Source: a bacterium (GTDB lineage: Bacteria; UBA8248). From it: a stretch of 64,000 bases of DNA. The position numbers and the translations under genes are program-made. The stretch covers positions 480,001 to 544,000 of the forward strand of contig CBDBZY010000064.1 in assembly GCA_965213685.1 (NCBI GenBank), in the 5' to 3' direction. The notes beneath the pieces are model-generated. The model was not told where the DNA came from and ran no database searches. It worked only from the letters and a program-made list of their open reading frames with translations. Shown piece after piece: positions 1,148-52,300 of this stretch. Within the stretch, counting starts at the first letter, position 1. Each line of letters opens with the position of its first letter.

Positions 1148-1371
1148 TACATGTACTGCTTGAAGAAAATAGTTCAAAGCAGCCATTAACAAACTGTTGA
1201 GCGTGCTTCTAATTAATAATAATAGTGAAGTCCGTACGAGTGAAAATCCTACGCTCGTGCTGTCTGGACAACCTGTGGCCCGTTTGGAGCGCTCTGGTGA
1301 AGCTACAAAATAGTCAGCTACAAAACAGTCAGCAGATATATGCCCACACCAATTGTGCAAATGTCAAGGAG

Positions 1372-6813: not shown

Positions 6814-7197
6814 TTGCTCAATACTCCCGAACTGAAGAGGGCTCTGTAATGCTTCGACTCTATCGCACAAACACAGAAGCGGCTAAACGGTATGCGTACA
6901 TAGACATATTATAAAACCCGCTATCTCTTCTTGTTCTCACGTGCACTCCGTATTCTTGGCCAGCGTAATTCACTCCGTTCATGACACGCATGCGCAAGCA
7001 GTGTACCAGGCCTACACTCGACATCCAATAGCGCCAAACACAATCATCGCCATCTGAACGCTGTCAAAATTCATAATGATGGCTACACCCTAGAGGTGAC
7101 CCCGGTGCCCGCTGCCGCAGTTTTTGTATACAAAGGTGGGCGCGAGGTCACGTAGCTGAGTGACTATAGCGTATCTCCTAAGTACGGTCAACCGAAA

Positions 7198-8136
7198 ATG
7201 GATTACCTGTTGAAAATCGAGGAGAGGTTCGACAAAGCAAAGGCCGTCTCGTTCATGCAGAACTACTGGCACTACTCGCTGTACATTTCTGCTTTCTACG
7301 TGGTCAGTGTGTTCTCTTTGAAGCGGTACATGCGCCATCGCGAGCGTTACAATCTCCGCTTTCCTCTCTTCATGTGGAGTCTGTCCCTGTCCCTGTTCAG
7401 TATGGTGGGGTTCGTGGTTTCCGGAGTACGACACGTTACTCACCTCTTTCACAGCGGATGGGAGAGCAGCGTGTGTGATGATGTGTTCACCACCGGCAGG
7501 CCAGGTCTCTGGGCTTTCCTCTTTTGCTTCTCCAAGCTACCAGAGCTTACTGACACCTACTTTATCATTGCACGGAAACAGAGACTTATATTCCTTCACT
7601 GGTATCACCACATCACTGTCTTCGTCTACTGTTGGTACAACTATGGTTATCAAACAAACCCAGCTCAGTGGTTTATAACTCTCAACTACTTTGTTCATTC
7701 CATTATGTACCTGTACTATGCTGTTCGTGCATCGGGCCGGTTCCGTCCGCCGATATGGGTAAACATGATCATCACAGTGTTGCAGATCCTGCAGATGGTC
7801 CTGGGGGTGTACATCAATCTATATATCTACGTTAGAATGGCCCAAGACTCCAACTGGAAATGTGACAGAACCACGTACTCGTTTCTGTACTTGTCTTCTG
7901 CCATGTACTTCAGCTACTTCGTACTCTTTGCTCACTTCTTTTGGAGTACCTATTTCAGCAAGTCACTGAAATCCGACAAAAAGCCACGGGCAGAAGGAGA
8001 GCAATATAGTGGGAGCACTCCTGAAATGGATACACGTGTTCTCTGCAATGGCCTCTCAAGTAATAGATCAGTCATCCACAGGGCAAATGGGGTGGGCCCC
8101 AAGTGTCAGGGTGGTGTGATTGGCACAAGACATTAA
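7198..8136 (+). CDS. ELOVL6: Fatty acid elongase, ELOVL3/6 type, intronless
   Basis: Motifs FSKLPELTDT, RKQRLIFLHWYHH, NYFVHSIMYLYY, TVLQILQM; multiple TM segments. Confidence 0.92.
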   Translation: MDYLLKIEERFDKAKAVSFMQNYWHYSLYISAFYVVSVFSLKRYMRHRERYNLRFPLFMWSLSLSLFSMVGFVVSGVRHVTHLFHSGWESSVCDDVFTTGRPGLWAFLFCFSKLPELTDTYFIIARKQRLIFLHWYHHITVFVYCWYNYGYQTNPAQWFITLNYFVHSIMYLYYAVRASGRFRPPIWVNMIITVLQILQMVLGVYINLYIYVRMAQDSNWKCDRTTYSFLYLSSAMYFSYFVLFAHFFWSTYFSKSLKSDKKPRAEGEQYSGSTPEMDTRVLCNGLSSNRSVIHRANGVGPKCQGGVIGTRH

Positions 8137-9053: not shown

Positions 9054-9980
9054 CTATCGAATACGGGGTACACCATTGGAGATCTGCCCATTTAGCTGAA
9101 CATGTCCACTGGTCACTTCCGATTTTAGCTTTGAAGCTAGCTCCCCTTCTTTCTTTAGCTCCTTCAACTTGCTCTCACTGCCCTTCTTTGGTGGACGCTT
9201 GTGCAGGTATGCCCAGTAGAAGAAATTACCAAACAAGATGGCATAGGAGACGTAGAAGAACACTGATATGCCCACATCAAACCAAGAAGTCCTGCATGTC
9301 TTTCCATTGAGTAGTGCGTTCACCCCAACATAGTTGATCCACATTCCAACAAACATCTGTGAGAGTTGGATGGTTGTGATAGAGGTAGCAATCCAGCGTG
9401 GTGGGCTACGGCCACTGGCCTTCACTGCATAGTAACCGTACATAATCCCATGCACCATCAAGTTAACAAAGCCAAACCAGAGCCCAGTGGATATCGGATA
9501 GGCATAGCTGTACCAGCAGTAGATAAACACACTGAAGTGGTGGTACACGTGGAGGAAACTGAGTTTCTGCTTACGTAAGACAATGAAGACTGTGTCGACC
9601 AATTCTGGCAGTTTGGAAAAGGGAAAGAGGAATGACCATAGGCCCGCGCCGTTACTGCCAGTGTAGGCCCACAGATCACAAAGTGCATGATTCCACCCAC
9701 CATAGTACACCATTTGGCTTGCATGGCGTGTGCCTCTGAACACAGCAAAGAAACTGAAGGCACAAAGGAGAGTGCTCCACATGCACAGAGCACGGCGAAG
9801 GTCCATTGGCTTCCGATTCTTCATGAAGCGCTGCCCATACCAAACAAGGAAAAGGTAGAGAGCAGAGAAGTAGAAGGACCAGTGCCATCGCTTAGTCATC
9901 CATGGAATTGCTTTCTTGTCATCAAACTGGCTCTCTATACGATCAAGAAATTCAAATGGATGCAGAAGATAGTACGTCAT
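9054..9980 (-). CDS. ELOVL6: Fatty acid elongase, ELOVL3/6 type (second paralog); CDS in one exon
   Basis: Motifs FSKLPELVDT, RKQKLSFLHVYHH, NLMVHGIMYGYY. Likely ATG at 9980 (MTYYLLHPF), splice acceptor at 10013 and a probable 5'UTR exon donor at 12083. The N-terminal extension in the ORF track is a CA-repeat artefact. Confidence 0.9.
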   Translation of the reverse strand: MTYYLLHPFEFLDRIESQFDDKKAIPWMTKRWHWSFYFSALYLFLVWYGQRFMKNRKPMDLRRALCMWSTLLCAFSFFAVFRGTRHASQMVYYGGWNHALCDLWAYTGSNGAGLWSFLFPFSKLPELVDTVFIVLRKQKLSFLHVYHHFSVFIYCWYSYAYPISTGLWFGFVNLMVHGIMYGYYAVKASGRSPPRWIATSITTIQLSQMFVGMWINYVGVNALLNGKTCRTSWFDVGISVFFYVSYAILFGNFFYWAYLHKRPPKKGSESKLKELKKEGELASKLKSEVTSGHVQLNGQISNGVPRIR

Positions 9981-10073
9981 ATTGGTACAGGTAGTGAGTT
10001 GTACACAGTTGCCTGCAGGAAAAGAGGGACGGAGGGAGGGAGAGAGAGAGGAAGTGAAAGGTTGCCCACCCAT

Positions 10074-10184
<111 letters not shown>

Positions 10185-10267
10185 GCTATTTTTCCTTCCA
10201 CATCTCAACATGTTCATGACAAAGTGGACCAACATTTCTTCATTCTTGTGTGGTCAAGAAAGATTCA

Positions 10268-22920: not shown

Positions 22921-24900
22921 TTAATAATAATAATAATAATAATAATACTTTTATTGACAACGGAAGCCGGGGTGGCTTATTTGCCATGCAGTGGTACACA
23001 AATGCAATTTAAATGACTTATACACAAAAGCAGATAGTTCACATAGAATGTGCACATTTGTGGATGTTAGCAGATATATGAACTTGTCAGTTGTGCTGAG
23101 CCACTGGAAAGGCGGATAATAAGCATGAACCATTGCAAAAAGTTCCCGACGTAATGTCGAGAATCTGGGACACACACAAATGAAGTGTATCTCATCTTCC
23201 ACCATCTGGCATCTCCGACACAGCCGAAGGGGTACAGGAGTAGGTGTTGGCTTATGATACCTGCCGACTTCAATTTCAAGGCGATGGCAGCTTAGTCTTA
23301 ATCGAGTGAGGGCCACTCTATGCTTTACATTTGCCACGATAGATAAATATGGTTCCTGCTCAAACTTTCTTTTAAAAAGTTGATAGGTTCTTAACTTATT
23401 TCTACCACTTCCTCTTGTACTAGTTGTTCTATGGAGCTTCTGATACCAGGATTGGATGTACTGGTCTCAGTAACGTAGCATTATTAAGTTGGTTAACTCT
23501 TTGTCACAGCCATTATATGTAAAGGCAGAAGCAAAACCTGCCCCCTCAAATATTGCTTGCACCTTGGTTAGCCAACATTGTTTGCCTTTTTCAAGCAAGT
23601 GCTTTAGATGAAGAATTGCATGTCTGAGTAGTACTGGAGCATCCTCTGAGCAGAGTCTGTTCCAGTATCTCAAAATCCTCTCTTTCCATAACAGATGGAT
23701 AGGTAGTTCACCAAGTTCACCTCGAATAGCTGCTGTAGTTGCATTAGGTGGGAGGTAAAGAACAAACTTAAGGTAGTGGTCTTCAACTCTCTCCAAATCT
23801 TGCCCTCATGAAACCCCCATAACTCACAACCATAAAATAGAATGGGTACAATCATTACATCATAAAATGTTAAGGCCACTGGGACTGGAGGGTAGAGCAG
23901 CTTGGAGAGTGCTGATTTAAGGGAAAAAACTGCCTTTTTTCCTTGATTACTAAGATGTCTTTTAGCTGTCCTGAATTCCCCATTTGATGTTACCCACACT
24001 CCCAGATACTTGTATGCACTCACTCTCTCCAGTGGGATACCTTCCCAGAAGAATGGCAATTTATCATGATTGTTACCAAATATGCAAATCTTAGTTTTCT
24101 CAGTATTGATTATTAGGTTCCACTTGTGACAGAATGTTTGCAGGGAGCTCAGGTGTTTTCTCAAACCATTTGCACTTGGAGACAATAGCAAAACATCATC
24201 TGCAAACATTAATATACTTAAAAACATATCATTTAATTGAGCTCCATCATGGTTGCCCAAAATGTCTGACTCCAGATCACTTATGAATAGGCTGAAGAGT
24301 AGTGGGCTAAGGTTGCATCCTTGTCTCACACCTTTCTGACTTGGAAATGGCTCTGTACTCTCACACCTGGACACTCTGACTCTCGATACAGCCTGGAGAT
24401 ACATTGATTTGATTACGTTAAGGCACTGCTGACTTATTCCTAATGCAACCAGTTTATTCCATAATAAATTGTGATTCACATTATCAAAAGCTTTACTGAA
24501 ATCCACAAAACAGGCAAAGAGAGCTCTCTTTTGCAACTTTGCACTTTGAATGAGACTGTTAAGGATGAACAAACAATCTGGTGTTCTCCGATTCTTCCGA
24601 AATCCAAATTGTGTTTCAGGTAGTAGCTATAGACCTCTCATTTCAGCCCAGTCATTAAGTCTGTTGAATAGCACAGTAGTGAAGAGCTTTCCAATACAGT
24701 TGAGTAGTGTTATTCCTCTATAATTATTAGGGTCCCATTTGCCACCTGCCTTGTGAATAGGGCATATAACTCCAGTAGACCAAGAAGCAGGATATTCACC
24801 AGTTCGCAAAACCTGATTTAACAGGATGGTAATTAGTCGTTCATTTAAGGCTTTGTATACATCTGGTGGGATTCCATCATCACCTGGAGATTTTCCTGAT
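22921..24900 (-). mobile_element. 5'-truncated, frameshifted non-LTR retrotransposon (RTE-X-like)
   Basis: RT motifs NYRGITLL, DFSKAFD, GVRQGCNLSP, FADD; C-terminal CxxC...H...C; (TTA)n tail. Absent from the duplicate locus at about 29900. Confidence 0.88.
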
Positions 24901-25650: not shown

Positions 25651-26346
25651 TTAACGGCAGCGAGGAAGATGAACCCGAACACACACATCAGTGGGAAAGG
25701 CCTGCACGTAGACATCCACAGCTACGTTTCCCTTAGGTACTGGAACTGTGATTGGGACTTTAAGTGCCAGAGGACTGACTCGAGAACAGTCATTTGCAAT
25801 GGGCCTGTAGCACAGATTACCATTTCCTGTGGAGGGAAAGATTTAAGTTGTCAGCTCGCGAGTTGTTCAGTTGTAATGCCTTAACGCATGTATGCATATA
25901 GTAAGCCTAGAAAATCATACGATGTGCTACGTAAAACACTCACGGTCACAGACTCGGACATCCACAGTCACCCTTGCACCGAGGCTGATACCCAGGAAAT
26001 TAGTACCGCCAACATCCACCTTTACCCATCCACATTGGTTAGGCGTCACAGAGCAAACGTCCACGTTGACGAATGGAACATTCACGGGCACGCGGTCTCC
26101 CATACACTGTTGCTGCTGTACCTCCACCAACTCCCGAGGGTACTGCGGGTAATACATGGGCGAACGTGCCTCTGCGTCTTGAGCTCTCACAGACGCGAAC
26201 GGCTGGTAATACATAGGCGGCCGGTAATTAGAAGGAGCCCCAGCGTCATCAGCCATGGCTTCCTCAGTGTAAAGGGAACGAGCAGAGGCCGTGCACATGA
26301 GCCCCAACACGAGAATGGCTGACAGCGCGAGTCCAGCTGGATACAT
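25651..26346 (-). CDS. Secreted Cys-rich beta-strand protein, copy 1 (2 exons, 192 aa), unknown family
   Basis: Exon 1 26346-25944 (donor GAC C|GTGAGT); exon 2 25826-25651 (acceptor ccctccacag|) ending VRVHLPRCR*. Signal peptide MYPAGLALSAILVLGLMCTASA; 8 Cys in the C-terminal domain; TATAAA at 26491-26496 on the minus strand. Confidence 0.82.
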
Positions 26347-27579
26347 GGTGCGTGGTCGTAACTGCTGAATGAGTGCGATAGTCTTCAAGTTGTCGACAGA
26401 GTATCGTGGAAACGGCTCTCCTTTGTCCTCCTTGTGCTGTGAGATTTAGTTGTTGTCGCTGCCGATGACTCCAGGCTGAGCGGTGGCCCTTTTATACTCG
26501 TTCTTCCCCCCCGAGCTCAGAGGCCTCCCCCTCATTCCAGGAGCACTCCTGTTTCAGGAGTGCTCCTAGAAAGGGGGGGGGGCATGTCCGAATGAATGCT
26601 CCCAAACCCACGTAGGACCTAATTCGTTGGAATTGCCGCAAACGTACAGTGTAAATGCAACCTTCGTGGAATAGCTTTATCTGCATACCGAGAGGGTTTT
26701 GCTCATGAGTAACAAGTTCCCTGAATTTTAAACAAAAGGTTACCAACGGCCGGCATTAATTTACGTGTTGTACCAGGTTACAGAATTGTGCACGAACTGC
26801 AATATCAATGGCAACTGTCGCTACCGTTTGTTTATGCCCTCAATTTTATGCGCATTTACGAGGTGCGTTTGCGGGAATTTCAACGATTTAGCCAGGACTG
26901 GCCAGGGCAAATGGATATGCTGTGAGCAGTACGTTTTAGCAATGGGTGATATCCCATCTGGACCACTTGCTGTGTTGTTACTGCCGATGACTCCGCGCTG
27001 AGCAGTTGCCTCTCGTTCTTCCCACGGAGCACAGAGGCCTCCTCCTCCTTCCAAGAGCATCCGTTTCTGACAAAACTCACTCCGCAGATAAGGATGTTCC
27101 ACGAACCATGGAATTAAGGGACACATTTGAGGCTATTACAACGATTTAGGTTAAAGACATTGCTAGTACTAGCTAGTGCATGCATATTGGTCATTCTCAT
27201 AATTATTACGAGTCGTAAATATCCTGAATGTAAAAAAGAAAACAAAGGCCGGCCGTATTCTGGGTATTGTGTCAGGTTCCAAGATTGCATGTGCAGGGTT
27301 GCAATATCAATGGCATGCAGTTCCCACTACTGTTAGTTTATGCTCTAAATTGTATGCATGCTTACCGAGTGTTATAATACACTGACTGTCGGTCGTATGA
27401 AGAGTAGGGACAGGTGGCACAACTTCAGTTTGCCTTTTGGGGAACAGCTAGATGATAGCATACATTCCATTTTGATATAGGCCTAGTACCAGCACCAGTG
27501 TAGTCGTTGGCTGCTAATGCTATCACATGCTTGATAAGAAGTCTGACACAAAATGTGTCATTAGTTCGACGAGGATTGT

Positions 27580-27859
27580 CAGGGTTCTATGTAGAAAATT
27601 ACTTTTGAGGGGGAAGCGTCTTGCAGTGCAATGAAAACAATAGCTTACTACAGAAGTACACATTGTGTAGGGGGTCTGGGGGAGTATCCCCCAAGAAATA
27701 TTCTGATTTTGAGGTGTCTTTAAGTCATTTGATGCGATTTAGACCAAAAATCTCTTGGATGCCATGATCAGTGGCCAACTTTTGCGGGGGGAAGCTTGGG
27801 AGTTTGGGGGAGAAGCTTCCCCCCTGCCCCGCCTCCCCCCCCCAGTGGATAGAACCCTG
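27580..27859. mobile_element. MITE with 5-bp TSD (hAT5-like)
   Basis: TIR cagggttcta/tagaaccctg; TSD attgt. Confidence 0.8.
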
Positions 27860-28544
27860 ATTGTTCTCTTTTCTATCACGCTTGCATGCATGACGGTTGT
27901 CTTCCACGCTAGCACGTATGTACATGTACGTGTCACATTATCGTGACCGTTAATTCGTGACATTTTCGTGTCCTCTGAGGAATAAAACACTCTTCTCTTA
28001 ACTTGTAAGTGGTGTGTTTGCTTTGCGAAGTACATATTACAGATTGGCACACCAGTTACACTTGGTAATAGCTGACTTCGATTGTGATAATTATGTCATA
28101 AGTCATAATGCGTTCGAAATTTGTGTGGGTGCTGTCTGCATCGCGGTACGTTGGGGCAGTAACTTCCTCCACTGCTCTCAAGTTACTATGTTTCGTGTAA
28201 TTCCCAGGACAGCTGATAGAATCTAAACAAGATTAAGGGCACCTTTCTCTGGTATCAATGGAATGCGTGCTTACCAAGTATTTCACTCGCACTGTCGGTC
28301 CCACGAATAGCTATTCACATTTCGCGTGCTTCAGAGAAAGCCGTGGACAGCTGTCACAACTTCAGTATACTTCCTGAAATCTTGTAGGAACAGATAATCT
28401 CATGCACACCATTCCATTTTCCTACTAGTGGACTCTCCCGGAATTCAAAGTGAGGCCTTAGCACAAGAAGACAAGTGTCATGTCCGCTGAGTTAATTGCT
28501 CCTGTGGCCAGTACTCAGGCAGTAGAACCCAGTTGGACCATAAA

Positions 28545-28733
28545 TACTATATTACCCACGTATCTGTGGTTGGACATACCTCATGATACTGTCTCAGCCA
28601 GTAATATACATACTTTTAAGTTACTTATATCTCCCTTATTTTCTTAATGTATTCATTTCTTTGGTTGCACTTGTATATTAGCTTACAGCTATTAGTGCTG
28701 CCTTGCCATGTGCAGAAAGTTATTATAAAAAAA
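28545..28733 (+). mobile_element. Short LINE 3'-end remnant
   Basis: tattagcttacagctatt is shared with the 3' end of the LINE at about 5531; ends in an A-tail. Confidence 0.5.
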
Positions 28734-30013
28734 GTACGTCTTGCCGTGCAAGATCGTACCACAAGTTTAACTTAGAACTATCTTCAGCCGTGTTACATCA
28801 TACGTCATAACGCGTTTAGCCCTCCTGCTAATATTTGTGGGGGTATAATTTCCGATCGCTCTCAGGGTACAGTATACCTGCCTAACTCCCAGGATCTGCT
28901 GATAGTCCTTAAAAAAGAGAGCACCTGATTCCCAGGTACTGACTCCTCGCCACAACAACACAGATTGAGAAGGACGAGCCAACATCGCACTCCGTATACT
29001 GATCCGTATACTTAGAATATGTTAGCACAGAGAAGTGATGGGACACCGCCCTTATCCAACACAGTTGGCACCCCACGGCAATATTGCAGGGTCGAATTCT
29101 AGCCACGCTATGATGTATCCACTGGCATTATGCACCTGCAAAATGCTAGGCCAAGCTGCCAGCCAGGTTGGAAACTCTCCTAGCAAAACTATATGTCGCT
29201 GCGGCGACGGAAAGTTTCAGATTCTTTAATACTTCACAAGCATGCGCCATTATAGCAGCAAGGCAAAACAAGAACGGGCAGCGAAAAACTACTCAGCAAT
29301 GAAGAGGGGAGTAGCAGGCTCTATAAGAGGAAAGAGGAAGCGGGGGTGGGGAGTTCAGGAGACGACTAGGGAGGCCTATCATGAATATATTGTTCCCCAC
29401 AGTAACAACTTACTCTGTGAATACCCTGCGACTGCGTGGATTGTTGTATCGTACCAGCTATCTAGGCTGGGTAAAGAGATTGGCTAGGTCCGTATTGATC
29501 CATTTCAGGTGTTATATGGGTGAAGTATACGGCAGTACTTCGTCGTCATTCCGTTGTCGTAATAATCGTACCTGGGAATCAGATCCACTCTTAATTGAAT
29601 TACAAACTTCATAGTATCGTTTTATCTGTAGAGCAAGTTTTGCTCAGAAATAGGGGTGCTCCTGGAACGAGGAGGAGGTCTCTGCGCTCCGCGCGTATAT
29701 AGTTCCTGACAAGTAACGTGATCAGCAGAGATTACAATTCTTGTAACCTGATCTGCTTGAATGCGGAGTGCCAGACTTTACATAAGCAGGCATAATAATA
29801 ATGTTAATGAATGTGAAGCAGTGTAATAGCTGACCCACCCAAGAACCGTTGCTGTCAAAGATTCCCACTTTCAATCTTCCAATTGTTCAAAAAAAATTTT
29901 AAATGATACTCATAATTCAGTTGTTGTTCATTATTGTAACAGTAGTTCACAACAGGGCACTATCAAATGTAGTAAATTGCTGAGAAAGCCTCTTCTCTTC
30001 CACATGCACAATG

Positions 30014-30238
30014 CAGAGGGGTAGCAGGCACTAGAAATGTGGGGGGGCAAACACCGAGAAAATTAAAGACCATTTTTTCTTGTATTGCGTATCAATGGTG
30101 ATAAATATTTAGTACACACACTATACATTAGATAGTGTCATCTGTCTATGCAGAGGCATTGCTGATACCAAGAAGTTGTTGGCAATAAAAAGTGTGGGGG
30201 CAACTGCCCCCCCTGCCCCCTCTTTTCCTACCCCTCTG
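30014..30238. mobile_element. MITE with 5-bp TSD (hAT5-like)
   Basis: TIR cagaggggtag/ctacccctctg; TSD caatg; damaged counterpart at 25045-25250. Confidence 0.8.
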
Positions 30239-30658
30239 CAATGGGAACACAAATCCCGATCCTGCAGCATGCATTGGCAAAATTCTTAATGGTTGACCAT
30301 TAAAACATTTTTTTTCAGTAGCAAATACAACTCCAAACACAACACAGCTACTGTCCTATAGTGGCGTATAAAATATACAGATACCTTACAAAAAACGAGT
30401 TCCAATGTATATGTAGTTGGATACTATAATACTATGTAATGCTAGTGACTGTCTCTACATAGGGATTCCTTACTACTGTATACTGTCCACTATTGTAATT
30501 TCCACGTCATCAACACCTGTACAAATGGTAAATACATTCAGGAACTTTTGATGCTACCACGTAACAGGTATATATATCATAGAATTAACTATACGTCGCT
30601 ATATTATTTTGCATTCTATTTGTAGAATGTGAATACATCAGTATACGTACCGTTGCAC

Positions 30659-31401
30659 TTAACGGCAGCGAGGAAGATGAACCCGAACGCAAACATCAGT
30701 GGTGGGAAAGGCCTGCACGTAGACATCCACAGCTACGTTTCCCTTAGGTACTGGAACTGTGATTGGGACTTTAAGTGCCAGAGGACTGACTCGAGAACAG
30801 TCATTTGCGATGGGTGTGTAGCACAGATTACCATTTCCTGTGGAGGGAAAGATTTAAGTTGTTCAGTTGAAATGCCTTAACGCATGCATGCATATAGTAA
30901 GCCTATAGAAAATCATACGATGTGCTACGTAAAACACTCACGGTCACAGACTCGGACATCCACAGTCACCCTTGCACCGAGGCTGATACCCAGGAAATTA
31001 GTACCGCCAACATCCACCTTTACCCATCCGCATTGGTTAGGCGTCACAGAGCAAACGTCCACTTTGACGAATGGAACATTCACGGGCACGTGGGTTCCCA
31101 TACACTGTTGCTGCTGTACCTCCACCAACTCCCGAGGGTACTGCGGGTAATACATGGGCGAACGTGCCTCTGCGTCTTGAGCTCTAACCTGCTCCACAGA
31201 CGCGAACGGCTGGTAATACATGGGCGAACGTGCCTCTGCGTCTTGAGCTCTAAACTGCTCCACAGACGCGAACGGCTGGTAATTAGAAGGAGCCCCAGCA
31301 TCATCAGCCATGGCCTCCTCAGTGTAAAGGGAGCGAGCAGAGGCCGTGCACATTAGCCCCAACACGAGAAGGGCTGACAGCGCGAGTCCAGCTGGATACA
31401 T
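30659..31401 (-). CDS. Secreted Cys-rich beta-strand protein, copy 2 (2 exons, 212 aa)
   Basis: Exon 1 31401-30942 and exon 2 30837-30659, with the same splice sites as copy 1. Two 22-aa propeptide repeats YQPFASVEQ(F/V)RAQDAEARSPMY. Confidence 0.82.
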
Positions 31402-32160
31402 GGTGCGTGGTCGTAGCTGCTGAATGAGTGCGATAGTCTTCAAGTTGTCGACAGAGTATCGTGGAAACGGCTCTCCTTTGTCCTCCTTGTGCTGTGAGAT
31501 TTATTCGTTGTCGCTGCCGATGACTCCAGGCTGAGCGGTGGCTTTTTATACTCGTTCTCCCCCCGAACTCAGAGGTCTCCCCCTCATTTCCGGAGCACCC
31601 CTGTTTCTGACCAAAACCCTCTCGGTATGCAGATAACGCTATTCCACGAAGGTTACATTTACAAGGTACGTTTGCGGCAATTTCAACGAATTAGGTCTTA
31701 CGCTGGTTTGGGGGCACATGAGTAACAAGTTCCCTGAATTTTAAACAAAAGGTTACCAACGGCCGGCATCAATTTACGTGTTGTGCCAGGTTACGGAATT
31801 GCATGTGCACGGACTGCAGTATCTGTCGCTACCGTTAGTTTATGCCCTCAATTTTATGCGCTTTACAAGTACCGTTTTCCATAACATTTTTGCAACAAAA
31901 CAGTGCAAAGGACACATAATATAGCCAATCAGGGTATGCACCCTTTATTACTTTACACAGAGCAAAGTGTTTATAAAAAACGGAGCTTCAATATATTGTT
32001 TAAAATATGAAATGGAGGATAACGAGTGAGTATCCAAAGTAAGATTATTCCAAGGAGGAATTACACTTGGAAGCAAGTTATGACATATTATGTTCTAGTA
32101 TATGGGCAAATGATACAAGTATATATAATTATCAAAAAATAGTTTCTGTTACTGGTACTA

Positions 32161-36346: not shown

Positions 36347-36765
36347 CATGAGAGACTGATGAGGCACAGAGTCAAATGCTTTCCTTATATCAAGCAAAAT
36401 GGCCCCGATATCTCTACCATGATCCAGTGTTTTTGCCACTCATTCACTACTGATTTCCTGCTTGAAACCCCATCAGTTGCTATAGAAACCTGCCTTGCTT
36501 CATTGAGGTGTTCATGCAGTTAGCATAGGCATTGAGGATGATGCTCAATCAGTATGCTTAAAAGTGGTAATAGGCCTGTAGTTGGATGCTTCATTGTGGT
36601 TTGATGATTTAGGAACTGGCACTATACAAGAGTTTCCCCAAAGTTTTGGAGATTGGCCAGGGAGAATGGATATAATAAACATTGTGTTAAGAGATGGTGC
36701 TATGCTGTGAGCAGTACGTTTTAGCATTATGGGTTATATCCCATCTGGACCACTTGCTTTGTTGT
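36347..36765 (-). mobile_element. Degenerate LINE RT fragment
   Basis: GPDGI...MLKRTAHSIAPSL...NYRPI...DIRKAFDSVPH across frameshifts. Confidence 0.75.
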
Positions 36766-37597
36766 TACTGCCGATGACTCCGCGCTGAGCAGTCATCTCT
36801 TATTACACTCGTTCTTCCCACGGAGCACAGAGGCCTCCTCCTCGCATCCCTGTTTCCGAGCAAAAGTCACTCCGCACATAAGGATGTTCCATGAACCATG
36901 CAATTAAGGGGCACGTTTGAGCTATACCACATGGTTCTGTGAGGTATGGGTGACAGCGATTGTGTTATGTCATAAGTCATAACGCATTCGAAATTTGTGT
37001 GGGTGCTGTCTGTATCTCGGAATGCTGGGGCAGTGACTTCCTCCACGGCCCTCAAGTTACTATGCTTTGTCTTAATTCCCAGGATCAGCTGATAGAATCT
37101 TAAAGAGTGGGCCTGATTCCCAGGTACAATTACTGGCTGGATCAAGCAGCAACAGAATGATGAAGAAGTACTGCTCGTGCACTTCGTAAACTTCGTCCAT
37201 AACATATTTCTAGTGTTGTATATTTTCTGTTTAATTTATATACTGGTAGTAGATCTATGGTGTCACATCTCACATTGGCATTATGTGTATAGCCATGTCC
37301 ACCTGAAATGGATCAGTACTGACCTAGACCTAGACCAATCTCTTTACCCAGCCTAGCTGGTACGCCACAACAAACCACGTAGGGTATTCACACAGTAAGT
37401 TGTTAATATGGGGAACATGACAGGCCTTCCTTGTCATCTTCTCAACTCCCCCCCCCCGCTTCCTCTTTCCTCTTATGCGCCTGCTACTCTCCTCTCCATA
37501 TGTTAAGTAGATCTAGTTTTTCCCTGCCCGTTCTTGTTTTGCCTTGCCTCGCAGCGCATGCCCGTGAAATACGAACCTTTCCGTCGCAGCAGCGACA

Positions 37598-38955: not shown

Positions 38956-41248
38956 ACACCATCAATGTTCGGACGCTCTCTCGCTGCTGTCGCTCAATGC
39001 GTGTATTTTTCTGTGTACCTAAATGATAGTTCATAACCAGATACTCCACTACTAGGATTGGGGCAAGTCCTCGTGCCCCCGTTTTTTCGCTACTGGGCGA
39101 CAAAAATAGATATCGGACACAGGTATGTTCGGAACTGAGAATGTACCACCGGACTCACGCGAAACGTTACTCCACCGTACCGAACAACGCGGTGGAGGAC
39201 ACCACTCCCTAACACCCGACAACTGCGCTTGCGTCCCATCACATACTAACCTTTGACCTCGACGATCGGCTGCCTAAAACTGATCATTCACCGCTATTGT
39301 CCGCACGTACGAATAATGGTAAGACAACAACGAAAATGATGGAAAGGCAAGTATTCATACGGAGATCGGTCACAAGTAAAGCTAAAACTATCTGGCTTGG
39401 CTTCACTGACACGAACGCCCACGCAGCAGTCGTACCAGCCCCCGCAGTGGATCCACTTCAGTGGCGTAGGATGATTGTTTCATTAGTGGGGGCACTCCAT
39501 CAATATGCGGTCTAGATGAGAAGGCGTGGCTCCGCGCACTTAAGATACGGCGCAGTTACGCACGACCTTTGACCCCGTATTTGCGTGGACACGACACATC
39601 CACAGACGGTTCTATTATCTATGACGCATCGCGATGCAGCGCGTGACGAGAAGACTGCGAGTGAGGCTAGAGCCAACGTCTGGGTTAGCTCAAGGCAAGC
39701 TAAGTAATTTCTCTACTACATAGTACTATTGCTTGGGACATGAAGATACGGCTAAGTCATTACATACGCCTGCGCTCCAGCGAAATTGCCCCCCCCCTTC
39801 CCCCAAGTTTTAGTGTGGGGGGCACTAATTTCGCTGGAAAGTAGGCGTATGTAATGACTTGGCCATATCTTCATGTCCTATATATGTGAGGCACCATGTA
39901 TAAATCTAAGGCTACAATTATAGAGAGAGGCCACAATTATTGTTGTGAAGCTACATTAATATACAAATGTAAGACTGTGAAGTACATGTAGGTTTGTCAC
40001 ATGCAGGTCACACGAAATCATGTGATAGCTAACCAGCCTCATTAAAATGGCTACTAGAGAGGCTTTAGAGTTGACAGTTAGTGTTGCTGCAGGTGCAGTA
40101 TAGCAGGCAGTGAAGAAGACATTTATTATGATCAAGAGTGAGAATAATGTGTAGTGCATGTGCTAATAAGACTAGCAAGTGAATTGATGAAATGGAGGCT
40201 TATGATACTCCATCATTTTGTAACACATCCACTCACCATTCAAAATGACACATTACCATAAACTCCTATTCCACAAATGTGAGTCAATTCACTTGCAAAA
40301 TTATATTAGTACATGCATTACACAACAACAATTATTTTGACTCTTGACCATCATAAATGCCTTCTTCACTGAGCATGATGCCTGCAAGCTGCAAGTTGCA
40401 ACTGCCCCTGCAACGACACTAACTGTCAGCTCTAAAGACTCTCAAGTAGCAACTATAATGACATGATTTCATGTGATCTGCATGTGACAAACAACCTCAC
40501 ATTTATAAATGTAGCCTTACATTTGTTTCACATTTCTAAACGAGGCCTCATACACACAATTTCCCACACAATTCCCATAGATAATAGAACCGATCATTCA
40601 TTATCTATGGACGCGTCATGTTCCACGCAAATACGGGGTCAAAGGTCGTACGTAACTGCGCCGCATCTCACGTGCGCGGAACCACGCCTTCTCATCTAGA
40701 CCGCATATTGATGGAGTGCCCCCACTAATGAAACAATCCTCCTACGCCACTGAAGTGGGTCCACTGCGGGGGCTGGTACGACTGCTGCGTGGGCGTTCGT
40801 GCCAGTGAAGCCAAGCCAGATAGTTTTAACTTTACTTGTGACCGATCTCCGTATGCCTTTCCATCATTTTCCGCTGCCGTCTTACCATTATTCGTACGTG
40901 CGGACAATAGCGGTCAATGGTCAGAATTAAGCAGCCCATCGTTGAGGTCAAAGGTTAGTATATGATGGGACGCAAGCGCAGTTGTCGGGTGTTAGGGAGT
41001 GGTGTCCTCCACCGCGTTGTTCGGTACGGTGGAGTAACGTTTCGCGTGAGTCCTGTGGTACATTCTCAGTTCCGAACATACCTGTGTCCGATATCTATTT
41101 TTGTCGCCCCGTAGCGAAAAAACGGGGGCACGAGGACTTGCCCCAATCCTAGTAGTGGAGTATCTGGCTATGAACTCTCATTCAGGCACGCAGCGAACTA
41201 CACGCATTAAGCGACAGCAACGGGAGAGCGTCCGAACATTGATGGTGT
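38956..41248. mobile_element. 2.3-kb foldback (long inverted repeat) element
   Basis: 38956-about 39620 is the reverse complement of about 40580-41248; inner arms about 39948-40189 / 40284-40518; extra hairpin at 39737-39879. Confidence 0.85.
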
Positions 41249-41289
41249 CCGAGATTTGATGGCTTACTCTATAGTTGTCTAGCTGGCTC

Positions 41290-43271
41290 TAATACATTAA
41301 GAAGAAGATGCCTCTTACATCCTACAATCCATAACTCTTCTAAACTACAAATTTCTGAAACACAACTTCAGCATAAAATGTTGGCAGCCAAAGCTAGTTT
41401 TGAAGCAGATTTAATTCAAGAATCTTCTCCAAAGAATATCTCAAGGGTTTATAGATATATTAACAGCATCACTAGGCATGATACAATACCACCAACTGTC
41501 AGCCTGGACTCCCATATCGCCACCTCTGATATTGAAAAGGCTAATCTCTTCAACACATTTTTCCACTCAGTCTTTACACACAGCTCCTACAACTTGCCTC
41601 CTCTAGAAATACTACCCATGCCTCCTTCAACAATTAGTGACATAACTATATCTGAGTCTGACGTTTATGATGCGATGACTTCATTGAACCCAACTAAAGC
41701 AATGGGAATTGATGGAATTGGACCAAGATTACTAAAGCATTGTGCTTTAGCACTGTATCAACCTCTCCACCATCTATTTACTTTGAGCCTTGTTCAGCAT
41801 TATTTGCCCCAAGAGTGGAGATTTCACCTGATCACACCTATCTACAAGTCAGGAAATAAGTCTTCAGTGAAAAAATATAGACCTATCTCACTCCTCTGCA
41901 TTGTTTCTAAAGTACTTGAAAAAATTGTTTATGACAAAATTGTTTCATTTGTTTCCAGATCCATTTCTTCGTGTCAGTTTGGTTTCAGGCAGAATCACTC
42001 CCCTCTTCAACAGTTGCTACTATTCTTGAACTCTGTACATGAGTCCTTCAGCACAACTACACAGACTGATGTTATCTACCTTGATTTCAAGAAAGCTTTC
42101 GATAGCGTTGCACATAATGAGTTGCTCGTCAAACTATGGTCTTTTGGCATCCAAGGAAATCTTTGGAAATGGTTTAGAGGTTACCTTACTTCAAGAATGC
42201 AGTGTGTGTCTATAAATACTTCCATCTCAGCCCAATTACCTGTTATTTCTGGAGTGCCTCAAGGTAGCATTCTTGGCCCACTATTATTTTTAATCTTTGT
42301 GAATGACCTTCCTCCATCAGCGTCAACCTCAAGTGTTTTTCTCTTTGCAGATGACACTAAATGTCTCAAAACTATCCGTAACATCTCTGATTGTCTTTCT
42401 ATGCAGAAAGATCTGCAAAACCTAACAATATGGAGTCAGTGCTGGAAATTGATCATGAATTTCAATGTTGCAAAGTGTGCTCTCCTCCGCTTCTCCTCTG
42501 GATGTTCATCTGTTATCTTCAATTACACCATCAATGACAACTTAATCTCTGCTCAAGAAACTCACAGAGATCTAGGCATCATTATGTCCAGTGATCTCTC
42601 ATGGAGAGAGCACATGAAAAGTATTCTGTGCAGAGCTTACAAAACTCTCAACCTTGTTCGACGCTCATTTAGCAGAGGACACAGTCCTCAAACCAAGAAG
42701 ATCATCTATTTGTCCTTAATTCGTTCACAGCTTACATATTGTTCACAGATTTGGCGTCCCCACCTTCTGAAAGACATAGTAGCTCTTGAAAAGATCCAGC
42801 GCCGTGCAACAAAATATGTTCTGAATGACTACACATCAGACTACAGATCTCGTCTTATTGCTCTCCACATCCTTCCCTTGATGATGCAACTAGAGCTATT
42901 TGATGTCATGTTCTTTATTCGATGTCTGAAAGCACCAACTGATGCCTTCAACATATATGACCATGTTACCTTTCACACTAGCTCTACACGTTCTTCCACC
43001 CACCTCAAGTTGAAACATGTTTTGTCAAGAACAAACTCTGCAAGACATTTTTATTTCAACAGAATTCCTAGATTGTGGAATTCTCTGCCTACCTTTGACT
43101 TGGACCAGTCCATTTCCTCTATTAAGAGAGAGGTAATGCGTAACGCACTTCTGGCCATTAGTTTCCACTAATGGACCCTCAGTACATCTGTCTTTGATCG
43201 TATCACCACACTATCCACTCCCTTTCATTTCTGTACTGTGAAGCATAATAATAATAATAATAATAATAATA
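41290..43271 (+). mobile_element. 5'-truncated CR1/L2-group LINE with (TAA)n tail
   Basis: RT ORF 41378-43171; (TAA)n at 43245-43271. Confidence 0.9.
41378..43171 (+). CDS. LINE reverse transcriptase (truncated ORF2)
   Basis: YRPISLL, DFKKAFDSV, GVPQGSILGP, FADD. Confidence 0.88.
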   Translation: MLAAKASFEADLIQESSPKNISRVYRYINSITRHDTIPPTVSLDSHIATSDIEKANLFNTFFHSVFTHSSYNLPPLEILPMPPSTISDITISESDVYDAMTSLNPTKAMGIDGIGPRLLKHCALALYQPLHHLFTLSLVQHYLPQEWRFHLITPIYKSGNKSSVKKYRPISLLCIVSKVLEKIVYDKIVSFVSRSISSCQFGFRQNHSPLQQLLLFLNSVHESFSTTTQTDVIYLDFKKAFDSVAHNELLVKLWSFGIQGNLWKWFRGYLTSRMQCVSINTSISAQLPVISGVPQGSILGPLLFLIFVNDLPPSASTSSVFLFADDTKCLKTIRNISDCLSMQKDLQNLTIWSQCWKLIMNFNVAKCALLRFSSGCSSVIFNYTINDNLISAQETHRDLGIIMSSDLSWREHMKSILCRAYKTLNLVRRSFSRGHSPQTKKIIYLSLIRSQLTYCSQIWRPHLLKDIVALEKIQRRATKYVLNDYTSDYRSRLIALHILPLMMQLELFDVMFFIRCLKAPTDAFNIYDHVTFHTSSTRSSTHLKLKHVLSRTNSARHFYFNRIPRLWNSLPTFDLDQSISSIKREVMRNALLAISFH

Positions 43272-44420: not shown

Positions 44421-45228
44421 GTAAACGTGTACCTGCGTTTCAAACTGTGCATCGACTGTGTGGAACACACACAATAGTATTTACACCGAAAAACAAGAGA
44501 GATACTGGCACTAACAAGAACTCTTTGCTAGATTGCCGGGGAAGGTGGAAATGTATGTCCAACTGGTACTGCCTGCAGCTGAGTACTGGACACGGGCGAA
44601 ATTATTTTAACTCAGCGTGCATGACACTTGTCTGGTTGTCTAAGCCCTCATTTTCCAGGAGGGTCCACCATATAGTAGGAAAGAGGAATGGAGTGCATGA
44701 CTTCCTACGAGGTTTCAGGAAGTATAGTAAAGTTGTGACAGCTGTCCATAGCTTTCTCTGAAGCACGAAATGCGAGGTTGAAAAAGTATGCGTGGGAACG
44801 ACAGTAGGTGAAACATGCAGTGAAATACTTGGTAAGCACTCATTCCTTGATACCAGAACACGCAGCCTTGGGACATGGCAGAATACAACCTTGCGTAATT
44901 CAGGGAGCTTACTTGCATGGCAATGTCTCTACCTATTTCGTTGTAATTCACCGCAAAGGTGCCCCTTACTTGAATTGCAAGCTTCGTGGTAACTTATAGC
45001 TTTATCTGTAGGGCAAGTGTTACTCAGAAATAGCGGTGCTCCTGGAACGAGGAGGAGGTCTCTGTGCTCCGCGGGGAGAACGTGTGTAATTAAGGCGACT
45101 GCTCTGCCTGGAGTCATCGGCAGTGACGGCGGCTGAAACTGCACTATATTGCGAAGACCAGGGTGACACGCCTCACTGTCGACAACGTGAAGATTATCGC
45201 ACTCATTCAGCAGCTACGACCACGCACC

Positions 45229-46281
45229 ATGTCACCAGCTGGACTCGCGCTGTCAGCCCTTCTCACGTTGGGGCTCATGCACAGCCTCTGCTCGCTCCAT
45301 TTACGCTGAGGAAGCCATGGCTGAAGACACTGGGGCTCTACCGCTGTTCGCGTCTGAGGAGCAAATTGTACCCTCGGGAGTTGGTGGAGGTACAGCAGTA
45401 GCAGTGTATGGGAAACAACGTGCCCGTGAGTGTTCCATTCGTCAACGCGGACGTTTGCTCTGTGACGTCTAACCAATGTGGATAGGTATAAAAGATGGAC
45501 GTTGGCGGTACATGTACTAATTTTCTGGGTATCAGCCTCGGTGCAAGGGTGACTGTGGATGTCCGAGTCTGTGACCGTGATTATGTATAGAATGTAGCAC
45601 ATCATATGATTTCCCAGGATTACTAGTATGGCTTTTAAGCTAGCACGCTGCTTATAGTCGCAATGGCAGTTTGATTTTATGAATAAATAATTAGGCAAAC
45701 ACTTCACCGTTCACAACTGAACAACTGGTGTGCTGACAACTTAATCTTGCCTTGGGAAACAACGTGCCCGTGAGTGTTCCATTCGCCAACGTGGACGTTT
45801 GCTCTGTGACGTATAACCAATGTGGATAGGTAAAGATGGACGTTGGCAGTAAGTTCATATGTACTCATTTTCTGGATATCAGCCTCGGTGCAAGGCCAGG
45901 GTGACTGTGGATGTCCAAGTCTGTGACCGTGATTATTATTATAGAACGTAGCACATCATATGATTTTCCAGGCTTACTAGTATGGCTTAAGCTAGCACGC
46001 TGCTTATAGTCGCAATGGCAGTTTGATTTTATGAATAAATAATTAGGCAAACACTTCACCGTCCTTAAGGCATTACAACTGAACAACTTGCTTGCTGACA
46101 ACTTAATCTTGCCTTCCACAGAGATTGGCAATTTGTGCTACACGCCCATCACAAATTACTGTTCTCGAATCAGTCCTCTGGCACTTAAAGTCCCAATTAC
46201 AGTTCCTAAATACCTAACGTAGCAGTGGCCTTTCCCACCACTGATGTGTGTGTTCGGGTTCACCTTCCTCACTGTCGTTAA
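45229..46281 (+). pseudogene. Inverted pseudogene copy of the secreted Cys-rich protein
   Basis: Homologous signal peptide, Cys domain and exon 2 (46122-46281), with frameshifts, a TAG in the QQQQ run and an internal duplication of about 300 bp (about 45750-46060). Confidence 0.85.
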
Positions 46282-47195
46282 GTGTATGTATAGACAGTTC
46301 ATGTGTTATGAATTAGTAAGGAACCTCCATAGAGACAATCCATAGCTTAAATTGATGCTGCACATTGTCTTTTGTAATTATTACATGTGTAGGGTATAGG
46401 CAATTACAGGAGAGTAGATGTGCTACTTTTCGGAGATGTACATGCATTTGCTGCTAAAGAAATGTTGTGATGGTCAACTACAATTCAAATCTTCTCCCAA
46501 AGCATGTTATATCTTATGGGTGGGAAATTGGTGGTGCATTATTTGTGTTCACTTTGTGCATGTGGCTTTTGAGCAAGTAGCCTTTGTTTTCTTCTTTTAC
46601 TTTTTCCTATCTATACGTATAATAATTACTATTGTATGCCAACACTATTTCAATAGTAACTGCTTGTTAAATAAGTTCAACCTTTGTGCACATAATCATT
46701 AAACCCAGAACCAATCTCAGTTTATGAGCAGAGTTGTAGCTTAGCTGTTAAAGTTGGAATTTGCTTTACTCAGTAATGTCAGCGTGCATTATGACACACA
46801 ACCATGCATGGTCCTGCCAGGTTAAGTGATAGTCAGAGACGAGCAGGCTGCTCTTGAGATGTCAACGTGTAACATTATAGGGGATTGACAGCTCGCTCTT
46901 TGCAACAAGCTAGGGACAAGTTAGGCCACAGAAGAGCTCCTTAACTAGATCAGTTACAGCTCCAGGTTACAGCTTTCCTTCATCAGCATCCTGCAATGAG
47001 CACTTCAATATTTAGCCTGTCATCCGTGTAATTCGGAAGATTTTTCAAAGTTGATTAAAACAACCAGGTCACCTTACAGTCAAAAGGAATAATGTGTAAG
47101 AGCACAATGCACATTGCTATACAAGAAAGTACATAATTTACCATAATCATCATTTTGCACGCTCAGGTCACACCACCACAATTACAATGTCTCCT

Positions 47196-49389: not shown

Positions 49390-52300
49390 CTACTGCCTAG
49401 CCACGAGTTCATAGGCAGGTTCCTGTGTCCCAGTTCCAGTCTGTGGTATGGCATGGGGACATACATGCTTTTGGGAAGGGTCAGGTGCAGAGGTGTGCTG
49501 TGTCTGTGGCTGGTTCAGGGCCACCAGCTCATACTCATGCCTCTGGCCTCCCTCCTGAGGGTCATGTGATACCACACCATAGGCCAGGTTACTTGATGTG
49601 GACATGGAAACATCACCATTGGCTGCTCTGGTGATCTCACTGCAGAGAGATTTGAGTAATTGCTAGTACGTGTATGTAGGGCATATCCGATCATCCTGAC
49701 TTACCTGTTATGACTAGATTTTCTTCGGGACTTCAAGACAAGAAGAACTACTACAACAACAGCTACACCAATAACTGTAGATACACTAACAGCTACTGCC
49801 ACAGCTACTACTCCACCTAGTACAGCAGAGGTCCTGGTGGTCTTTGTGAAAATATATTGCCTCATTGATACTAGCATAATTAAATAGTTAATGCTGACCT
49901 AAAAGATGGAATCCCACAGCACTCTTCTCCCCTGCTCCAGCTGAGTTTGTAGCCCACAGAAGTACTGAGTATGATCCTATCATCAGGTCATTAATCACCA
50001 CACTGTTTTGCATTGGGTGTGTCGATATATTGTTTGTCTTTGTAGAGTCACTGTAGGTCACTGTGTAGCTGAGGACATGGCCCCTGGCCTCATCAGGTGA
50101 GAGCAGAGCCCACTCCACTCTCACATGAGTACTGTCAAGCACACTGGTACTCAGATGGCCAGGGGCTCTGGGAGCTGGAGCAATGCACAAGTGGACACTC
50201 GGACAATGACCACATACAGTGTTGGCCATCAGCTGCACTCACTCAGCTCCTCAGTGAACACATACTCAGTTGCCCTCCACTCTCCCTCTCCAGCACTGTT
50301 CACTGCAGCCACATACACCCTGTATGGCACTCCACTGTCTGCAAGAGAGGGAAGGGGTAGTCCTTGCAGTGTGAGAGGAAGTGTATCATTGAGAGAGAAG
50401 CTCACCCAGTTGGCTCACTAGCACACTCTGAGCATGAGCTGGGCCACTGGTCATTAGGTACTGTGAGGATGAGTTGACCCACACAAGGTAGTGGGAGGTG
50501 ACTCCATTGGCCAGCTGGACTGGTCCCCAGGTGATGTCCAGACTGGAGCTGTTTACAGTCTTGACGGTAATATATGACACAGGACCTAAACCTACATGTA
50601 TGCATAGTGTGAGATAAATGTGTGTTATACACAATGACATAGTCCTAATAAATTAAGTTACCTGTGAATAGAGCAACCTCAGACGTTTGTCTGCTGCCCC
50701 CACCATCATACTCAGCTACACATGTGTACTGGCCACCATCTGACATTCTGAGAGGCTGAAAATGTAACTCAAGGGTCGTCACATGCCCACCAGTGCTTGT
50801 GTTGAGAGTGTGGCCTGTGGAGTTCCTCCACCTCAGACCACTTAGTTGTTGATCACAGGGCAAATGTACTGTGCATGCCATTGTGTAGGTGTGCCCAACT
50901 ACAGAGACTCCAGAGGACTGGATTTGAAATGCTGTAAAAGAGACCAGTCTTTTACACCCACTTATATCTGTAGAATATAACTCACAGCTATCTCCTGTCC
51001 TGAAACTCTGCACACCACTTACAGACTTGTCTGCTGTGTTGGTGGCCACCACTTGGTACTGGTAGTTGGTGGCTGGCTCCAGGTTGGATAACTGTACTGA
51101 GTAGGTCACATCTGTAACGATGATGTCAGGTCCACTCTTCTGAGGGTAGCTGGTCAGGTTCAGGCTGTCCTGACTGGTCCCATACTCCACCACATAGGTT
51201 TCAGGAGTGTAGGCTATGGAGGGCACTGTCCACTGGATAGTGGCTCTGTTCCCACTTATAGCAATCACTGCAACATTCTGTGGCGGGTGAGGGGCTCTTG
51301 GACCTGCACACATGTGAAGGAGGAATGAGATGTTGAAACTAGCAAATCAGTACTTACCAATTAGTGAGACAAATGCTTGGTCTGTGCGATGAATGTTGTC
51401 AGTTCCTTCCAGGTCAAACCTGCACCAATACCCAATACTGCCATTGATTGTCTCACTCATAATCAGTGTACTGCTACTCCCATTGTCAGTGTGGAACATG
51501 TCACTGACGGGCAGAAATGAACCACCTCCCACTCCTCTTTTCTTCCACTGCCACGTCCTCCTCAGCTGTTCCCTCCCCTCCAGTCCAGTGACCTCCACTG
51601 TGGCAGAGCAGGTGGCAGTGAATGTGTTGTATGGAGGAACGTCAAGTATCCCAGTGGTGGCTGTTGTCATGATAACAGTCACTCTAGGAACTGTAACGAT
51701 GAGCAATATAGCTCATACATGTATGAACAACATGAAGCATTTAGTCATATGAATATATATCTGCCTTGTGGACAGTCTAGTTCACTAACCTGCTACTTGT
51801 AGAGGTGTATTGTTGGATACTCCTGTCTGAGTCCTCAGATATGTGTACTGTGCTGTAGGACTAAGGACTACTTCACAGGAGTAGGTTCCATTATCATTTC
51901 TGTAGCTGAGAGGAGTGAATTTAGTAGTGCAGCGATATAGAGTAGGAGAGAGTCTTTCAGTGTCAGGACAGCTCCTGAAGCTCCGCCCATTCTTCCTCCA
52001 TTCAACAGATACATTCACATGTGTATCAGTCACAGTGAGCAAGGTCACATCACACTGCAGGGTCAGGTTCAGACCAGCATAGAGTATGTCTGGAGCACCT
52101 AATGCTGTGGCAGTCACTGCAGGTGGGGGCACTGGAGAAGAAAGTTTGGTACTACATATAAATCAACACACTTACACACACACACACATTCATGATGACT
52201 CACCTGTGACTAGCACCACCTCAGACGTTTGTCTGCTGCCCCCACCATCATACTCAGCTACACATGTGTACTGGCCACCATCTGACACTCTGAGAGGCTG

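Follow-up and report, generated by a model that had tools for sequence, protein, structure and literature searches.

Big defensins, macins, and the coral damicornin are invertebrate precursors of cationic cysteine-rich defence peptides, and orphan secreted cysteine-rich families are common in invertebrate genomes. Among other small secreted proteins, those with an ML domain (PF02221), such as NPC2, MD-2, and Der p 2, form an Ig-like β-sandwich with a lipid cavity and three conserved disulfides; the fungal hydrophobins are secreted amphipathic proteins with eight cysteines in the pattern C-CC-C-C-CC-C; and the thrombospondin type 1 repeat carries a contiguous CSVTCG motif with an upstream WxxW. 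Here, we analyzed a stretch of 64,000 nucleotides (the window) from the assembly GCA_965213685.1, contig CBDBZY010000064.1, positions 480,001 to 544,000 (G000:C64:480001-544000, where G000 is the assembly and C64 the contig of the window), which is filed under a bacterium and holds two intact copies of a gene family related by sequence to no described family that we could find. The best overall explanation, and one that we consider somewhat probable, is that these genes belong to a lineage-restricted animal family of secreted 8-cysteine proteins arranged in a birth-and-death cluster.

An initial annotation of the window, made from the sequence alone, had noted that the open reading frames (ORFs) of copies 1 and 2 both end at CDRECFT* and had proposed that a GTGAGT donor and a conserved downstream acceptor add a hidden second exon to each. 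Both minus-strand ORFs do end in this way, and comparison of the paralogues supported the second exon, with introns at 25943-25827 and 30941-30838. We joined the exons by their coordinates in a script to obtain the spliced products, and the predicted parts of the two genes, together with a third copy beyond the window, are as follows.

26346-25651, minus strand: copy 1; spliced product of 192 amino acids (aa)
25944..26346, minus strand: copy 1 exon 1 coding sequence (CDS), 134 codons + 1 base; putative signal peptide, acidic linker, and first domain half with cysteines 1-4
25827..25943, minus strand: copy 1 putative intron, 117 nt, phase 1; GTGAGT...CTGAC branch-like site...TTTCCCTCCACAG (ends CAG)
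25651..25826, minus strand: copy 1 exon 2 CDS including the TAA; second domain half with cysteines 5-8
31401-30659, minus strand: copy 2; spliced product of 212 aa
30942..31401, minus strand: copy 2 exon 1 CDS, 153 codons + 1 base
31146..31283, minus strand: in-frame tandem repeat in the copy 2 linker; 66-nt unit, 2.1 copies, 98% matches
30838..30941, minus strand: copy 2 putative intron, 104 nt, phase 1
30659..30837, minus strand: copy 2 exon 2 CDS including the stop codon, read from the sequence
G000:C64:546727-547375, plus strand: copy 3 (locus L004 1501-2149); intact paralogue of 182 aa, 2.7 kb past the end of the window

The start codon of copy 1, with its ATG at 26346, lies in a CACC ATG context. 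Of the nine cysteines in each spliced product of copies 1 and 2, one belongs to the signal peptide; the other eight, in agreement with the exactly eight domain cysteines of the initial annotation, lie in the domain and are spaced C-x16-C-x6-C-x27-C-x6-C-x7-C-x34/35-C-x7-C. When copy 1 was aligned with copy 2, exon 1 showed 57 gap columns, equal to 19 codons, and exon 2 showed 3; the frame is kept in both, as had also been noticed. Part of the length difference in exon 1 arises because copy 2 carries the 66-nt tandem repeat at 31146-31283, which extends its linker by 22-aa units.

Copy 3 provides a more distant comparison, its protein being 52-58% identical to those of copies 1 and 2 (55% in exon 1, 58% in exon 2) with all 8/8 domain cysteines kept. 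Its intron, which matches those of copies 1 and 2 in position and phase, opens with GTAAGT after the equivalent split codon and closes with GCAG, with a branch-like CTGAC and a pyrimidine tract between them; a donor, these two elements, and the AG are retained in all three copies. Exon 2 of copy 3 comprises 57 full codons, keeps 4/4 cysteines, and stops at the equivalent place. Copy 1 and copy 3 are separated by 2 gap columns in exon 2, 29 in the intron, and 72 in the next 200 nt, and the ranges for copies 1 and 2 against copy 3 are 2-5, 26-29, and 72-76, respectively. At about 20% nucleotide divergence, the frame, the four cysteines, and the stop position of exon 2 are kept. By our own arithmetic, which assumes uniform codons and leaves the agreement in cysteines, phase, and stop out of the count, the chance of a 58-codon frame staying open is ~(61/64)^58 = 0.06. 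On these comparisons, we regard the gene model of two coding exons and one phase-1 intron as very likely right.

Relatives in protein collections bear on the same intron. Of 34 candidates from a word-based search using exon 1, 4 proteins were retained as relatives, and an exhaustive profile search gave 12 matches at E≤1e-3. Eleven of these belong to the family, with identities as low as about 30%; the twelfth, P0139 (1235 aa, E 7.7e-4), matches linker positions only. A name is carried by 0/14 cluster members read, their sources being short unannotated contigs or two long ones, and the eleven relatives are represented solely by bacterial-style ORF calls ending shortly past exon 1. Fourteen of 17 database relatives reach the fourth cysteine and all 14 end 2-39 residues later in mutually unrelated tails, as is expected if an intron is present at this place family-wide; tails such as REY, RECFT, and SKF would be what reading into GTGAGT or GTAAGT gives. 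One relative, P0129, looks like the counterpart of copy 3 in another data set. For conservation within the family, we used an alignment of 13 sequences (A3), which left out P0006 (the ORF of copy 2 in the window) as well as P0132, P0133, and P0135 (fragments or decayed copies). Invariant in A3 are the four exon-1 cysteines and the S, T, G, and V of CSVT-xxx-CG[WL]V, and the Q three residues before the first cysteine (Q78) is nearly so. Pattern searches for relatives gave 14 matches in genome contigs and 27 in metagenome contigs, none of which was confirmed, and of the 4 candidates returned for exon 2 among longer proteins none scored.

Several features indicate that these genes do not come from the bacterium under which they are filed. 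The assembly comprises 7,969,690 bases in 71 contigs, compared with 2.9-4.6 Mb for genomes of the same genus. Twenty-two contigs, amounting to 4,895,517 bases or about 61% of the assembly, have a guanine-plus-cytosine (GC) content below 0.56 and few long ORFs; among them is the contig of the window (1,635,321 bases, 44% GC, low ORF density), and in the remaining contigs GC is about 61-69% and ORFs are dense. The gene family is held by 0/41 bacterial relatives of the same family. Within the window, the only part of the 22 low-GC contigs on which animal-type gene content was examined, Pfam matches include reverse transcriptase/endonuclease ORFs of the long interspersed nuclear element (LINE) type, ELO genes, and Ig/Fn3 exons. 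Judged by composition and gene content, the assembly is chimeric, the window being animal DNA binned with a bacterium and its genes not bacterial. The marker-based figures (completeness 94.19, contamination 3.68) do not reveal the animal DNA, and gene catalogues built from the assembly will attribute animal genes to the bacterium. The best named relative of a window ELO protein is from a sea urchin at 46% identity, compared with up to 86% for unnamed entries from unannotated assemblies, which points to the lack of a close annotated relative of the host animal. No obvious mitochondrial ORFs were seen on the small low-GC contigs, and Rfam and tRNA scans of the window gave no match.

The copies are accompanied by promoters and by remnants of further copies, which we list here.

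26466..26555, minus strand: copy 1 putative core promoter; TATAAAAG at 26496-26489, 30 nt upstream of the conserved GGAGTCATCGG block, initiator (Inr)-like A at 26466
31521..31607, minus strand: copy 2 putative core promoter; TATAAAAA at 31550-31543, Inr-like A at 31521
26916..27136, minus strand: orphan promoter fragment A; 78% identity to the copy 1 promoter over 105 bp, TATA box deleted, without a coding part downstream
36701..36925, minus strand: orphan promoter fragment B; 85% identity to fragment A over 235 columns
29647-29689: promoter piece of 43 bp, matched by blastn with the copy 1 unit
45027..46284, plus strand: inverted pseudogene; promoter, exon 1 with a frameshift and stops, internal duplication, and exon 2 remnant with a deletion

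The conserved block in the copy 1 promoter is of the TCA(+1)T type and is conserved in 6/6 aligned upstream regions; the 5' untranslated region of copy 1 is ~120 nt long and lacks an ATG. Copy 3 has its own TATAAGAAG promoter. The pseudogene duplication (45753-45984) consists of the 3' part of exon 1 and the intron, and the stops are two TAG and one TAA in one exon-1 copy and one TGA and one TAG in the duplicated second copy. When the copy 1 unit was compared with the whole assembly by blastn, matches were confined to C64, namely copy 2, the pseudogene, the promoter remnants (26973-27067 and 36759-36843), and copy 3. Beyond the cluster, a tblastn search of the 8 Mb assembly with the spliced domains gave no further paralogue below E 0.24. 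These data support a local birth-and-death cluster of ~41 kb, comprising three intact copies (one of which lies outside the window), a decayed copy in inverted orientation, and remnants of promoters. The initial annotation had suggested a birth-and-death family from its pseudogene (placed at 45229-46281) and orphan promoter fragments (about 26985-27130 and 36768-36920); the three intact copies, the decayed copy, and the remnants on one contig agree with this suggestion, the pseudogene now including its promoter and the fragments being slightly wider.

We also considered that the promoter fragments might be a dispersed repeat and rejected this possibility, all 6 blastn rows lying inside the cluster and none elsewhere in the assembly. 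Two rearrangements were seen near the promoters. A near-palindrome at 26523-26583 (AGGAGCACTCCTG...CAGGAGTGCTCCT) in the copy 1 promoter comes from an inverted local duplication, of which copy 2 has one arm only, and in copy 2 a 109-nt segment is inverted upstream of the promoter, as found by blastn with the copy 1 unit.

The N-terminus of the protein is hydrophobic and ends in TASA before an Arg (cut TASA|R), with a helix at residues 6-17 in the AlphaFold2 (AF2) model. This signal-like N-terminus is kept in 9/10 relatives that include the N-terminus, and the tenth (P0138) has an N-terminal extra stretch before the signal. Secretion by means of a cleavable signal peptide is therefore likely from the sequence. 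The linker that follows is acidic (net charge -2 to -6, isoelectric point (pI) 4.3-5.2), rich in Tyr, Pro, Gln, and Glu, and predicted to be disordered, with a predicted local distance difference test score (pLDDT) below 50 in AF2; its length and sequence differ in almost every member of the 13-sequence alignment. In contigs of three of four DNA sequencing runs, 29 other letters replace part of the linker-coding region (31141-31290, 26143-26235), and the replacement resembles the linker of the pseudogene and of P0132/P0135. This indicates that, in those data sets, copies or alleles differ in the linker region.

The domain of 111-116 aa is cationic (net charge +4 to +6, pI 8.7-9.1), and its β-periodic hydrophobic moment (z=4.1) was reached by 0/1000 shuffles. 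AF2 models were made of the exon 1 half and the exon 2 half separately, and strands were counted in each: four in the exon 1 half, whose pLDDT averages 49.4 and reaches 53-68 in its last six 10-residue blocks (71-134), and three in the exon 2 half, with a mean pLDDT of 76.6 from an alignment of three sequences only. The models make it likely that the domain is all-β, with about seven strands, and disulfide-rich. Seven amphipathic strands together with eight cysteines suggest a compact β-sandwich that would be stapled by four disulfides. Val accounts for 25 of the 115-116 residues in copies 1 and 2 compared with 14 of 111 in copy 3, so the Val-x-Val pattern characterizes copies 1 and 2 and not the family as a whole. 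Thus, the strand-rich secreted 8-cysteine domain of the initial annotation stands, and its long alternating Val-x strands hold for copies 1 and 2 and are weaker in copy 3. The same annotation had spoken of amphipathic β-hairpins, hinting at membrane activity; given the weaker strict Val-x pattern in copy 3, we did not find this borne out, and an alternation of hydrophobic and polar residues is shown by any β-sandwich strand. An internal duplication of two 4-cysteine halves was also considered and was rejected (hhalign probability 0.8%).

We compared the proteins with known families using the halves and, for copy 1, a read-through of the in-frame intron with X at its four stops as queries, and took a profile match at the gathering score as the mark of Pfam membership. 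At E≤10, no family was matched by the exon 1 product of either copy, by that of exon 2 in copy 2, or by the read-through; the exon 2 product of copy 1 yielded a single row below threshold (PKAT_KLD, 14.7 bits where 27.7 are required, over 14 residues). Searches of PDB sequences gave only short, chance-level matches and no named relative: a designed protein (E 0.009) on the linker, Tm-1 (E 1.7), and a designed propeller (E 2e-4) over 16 residues, with no stretch passing alone. The ESM Atlas returned no usable match to either half, Foldseek gave 0 matches at E≤0.001 for the exon 2 half, fold searches with this half gave no notable match, and nine peptide motifs of the family were not found in a full-text literature search. 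Altogether, no named relative was found in Pfam, PDB sequences, the ESM Atlas, two large protein collections, or full-text motif searches, in line with the statement of the initial annotation that it recognized no known family. Of the checks it had proposed, the profile and sequence searches, made here with the halves and the read-through, were negative, and the structure search covers the exon 2 half.

Against this background, the closest likeness in layout is to the invertebrate defence-peptide precursors, with which the family shares a signal peptide followed by an anionic region and, toward the C-terminus, a cationic part rich in disulfides, as well as short, locally clustered genes with pseudogenes and fast amino-acid change around fixed cysteines. 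It differs from them in that there is no sequence or profile match, in its predicted all-β domain of 111-116 aa with an 8-cysteine spacing of its own, and in that no furin-type processing site is conserved. By its sequence, the family resembles defence-peptide precursors in layout and belongs to no such family. With hydrophobins the proteins have in common eight cysteines, a small secreted size, and an amphipathic character, but no cysteines are adjacent here and the hydrophobin pattern is absent, the source is an animal, and there is no Pfam match. The invariant CSVT...CG resembles the CSVTCG of the thrombospondin type 1 repeat; however, three residues separate the T from the CG in 13/13 sequences, there is no WxxW layer, and PF00090 is not matched. 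This likeness is probably due to chance. Cystine-knot growth factors and IL-17-like ligands were rejected as well: CxGxC and CxC are absent from the cysteine spacing and there is no Pfam match.

As for function, an extracellular defence or recognition effector is the most likely role, which we put forward tentatively. In this proposal, a gene driven by a TATA + Inr promoter and split into two coding exons by a single phase-1 intron would encode a product of three parts. A cleavable signal peptide would be followed by a fast-changing acidic disordered region, resized by in-frame repeats and acting as a charge-masking or spacer part, and then by the cationic domain with its eight invariant cysteines, which would bind microbial or foreign surfaces. 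A bolder version, which we consider quite unlikely, is that the proteins are founding members of a new disulfide-stapled β-sandwich fold, being fast-evolving secreted immune effectors in an under-sampled marine animal lineage with dense bacterial communities; they might act on symbionts of the same animal, and the variable acidic repeats would tune their activity or localization.

Several observations weigh against the explanation of these loci as two-exon genes for secreted 8-cysteine effectors. First, none of the four sequencing runs listed, which are from one study, is on record as RNA. Their contigs span intergenic DNA and bridge the copy 1 intron, as genomic DNA does, and they contain a form of this intron that is 15 nt shorter. 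The contigs showed no splice joint, and splicing, for which the initial annotation had proposed an RNA-seq check, is supported by comparison of the copies. Second, no spliced relative was found in any protein collection searched, and in copies 1 and 2 no canonical AATAAA could be seen by eye in the 250 nt that follow the stop. Third, the ratio of nonsynonymous to synonymous substitution rates (dN/dS) in the domain is 0.58-0.84 for copies 1 and 2 against copy 3, with cysteines fixed. Because values of 0.6-0.8 are only weakly below 1, the coding argument rests on frame, cysteines, and indel pattern more than on substitution rates. Fourth, the fold class derives from separately modeled halves, and confidence is low for that of exon 1 (mean pLDDT 49.4). 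Fifth, no basic (furin-type) K/R pair before the QQxC junction is conserved across the 13 aligned relatives, such that the initial description of the acidic region as a propeptide is not supported, and this region may stay on the mature protein. Finally, 111-116 aa is large for a classical antimicrobial peptide domain, and the function of the family, like the defence, toxin, or structural role suggested in the initial annotation, is inferred.

A possible retention of the acidic region leads to the alternative that fares best, namely that the proteins are structural, matrix, or adhesive components, in which the retained Tyr/Pro/Gln region would be cross-linked or bind mineral or matrix and the 8-cysteine domain would be an anchoring module. 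Besides the lack of a conserved cleavage site between linker and domain, a repeat-built, acidic, Tyr/Pro/Gln-rich, and predicted disordered linker fits this alternative, such a composition being typical of many extracellular matrix and adhesive proteins, and a strong TATA promoter fits abundant expression. However, across the 13 relatives it is the linker that is least conserved in length and sequence and the domain that is conserved; a small number of copies, their quick turnover, and the absence of a match to any matrix family also weigh against it. We consider it unlikely, though worth keeping in view.

It is decidedly improbable that the domain is a diverged small lipid- or ligand-binding β-sandwich of the MD-2/NPC2 (ML domain) type or a secreted signaling ligand. 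Size, secretion, all-β prediction, and disulfide stapling are compatible with such a protein, the ML domain being likewise small, secreted, β-rich, and disulfide-stapled. Yet PF02221, like all other Pfam families, is unmatched by the halves and the copy 1 read-through even at E≤10, PDB sequences of such proteins give no match, the domain has eight cysteines and not six, and the cystine-knot signatures CxGxC and CxC are missing. That exon 2 is unused, the true product being the unspliced ORF that ends ...CDRECFT or the loci not being expressed protein genes at all, is highly improbable: it would fit the lack of RNA support for a splice in the four runs, the unspliced state of every database entry, and a dN/dS close to 1, but the entries say nothing about splicing because they are automatic bacterial-style ORF calls on short contigs (0/14 cluster members named) whose read-in tails differ among relatives, the unspliced product would have an odd number of cysteines in its mature part, the splice signals are conserved in three copies, and exon 2 has held its frame, cysteines, and stop while the intron and flanks are ridden with gaps.

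If the gene model and secretion hold, the secreted 8-cysteine proteins constitute a family of animal proteins that has so far gone unannotated, with no fewer than eleven diverged relatives public only as shortened, unnamed ORF calls. Lineage-specific secreted cysteine-rich families are a frequent source of host-microbe effectors, toxins, and new folds.

Apart from the cluster, the following features were identified by Pfam matches in the window and, in one case, at another locus.

7156-8136, plus strand: intronless ELO (GNS1/SUR4) fatty-acid elongase ORF, E 1.7e-63
9054-10253, minus strand: intronless ELO (GNS1/SUR4) fatty-acid elongase ORF, E 4.3e-65
1213-5536 (plus), 23670-24626 (minus), 41243-43171 (plus), and 56094-58910 (plus): LINE-type retrotransposon ORFs (endonuclease, reverse transcriptase)
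L013 9163-11886: further LINE-type ORF
50645-54576, minus strand: exon-sized ORFs with Ig and Fn3 domains, a multi-exon cell-surface-type gene adjoining the cluster

The two ELO ORFs are arranged tail to tail. The LINE at 1213-5536, with two long open frames of 475 and 971 aa, may be intact. Between the copies, the stretches 27510-27951, 28394-28835, and 29941-30382 have a summed contig depth 10 to 200 times that of their flanks in the four DNA runs, and A-rich loose contig ends occur at 28733; these intergenic stretches look like high-copy repeats resembling short interspersed nuclear elements.

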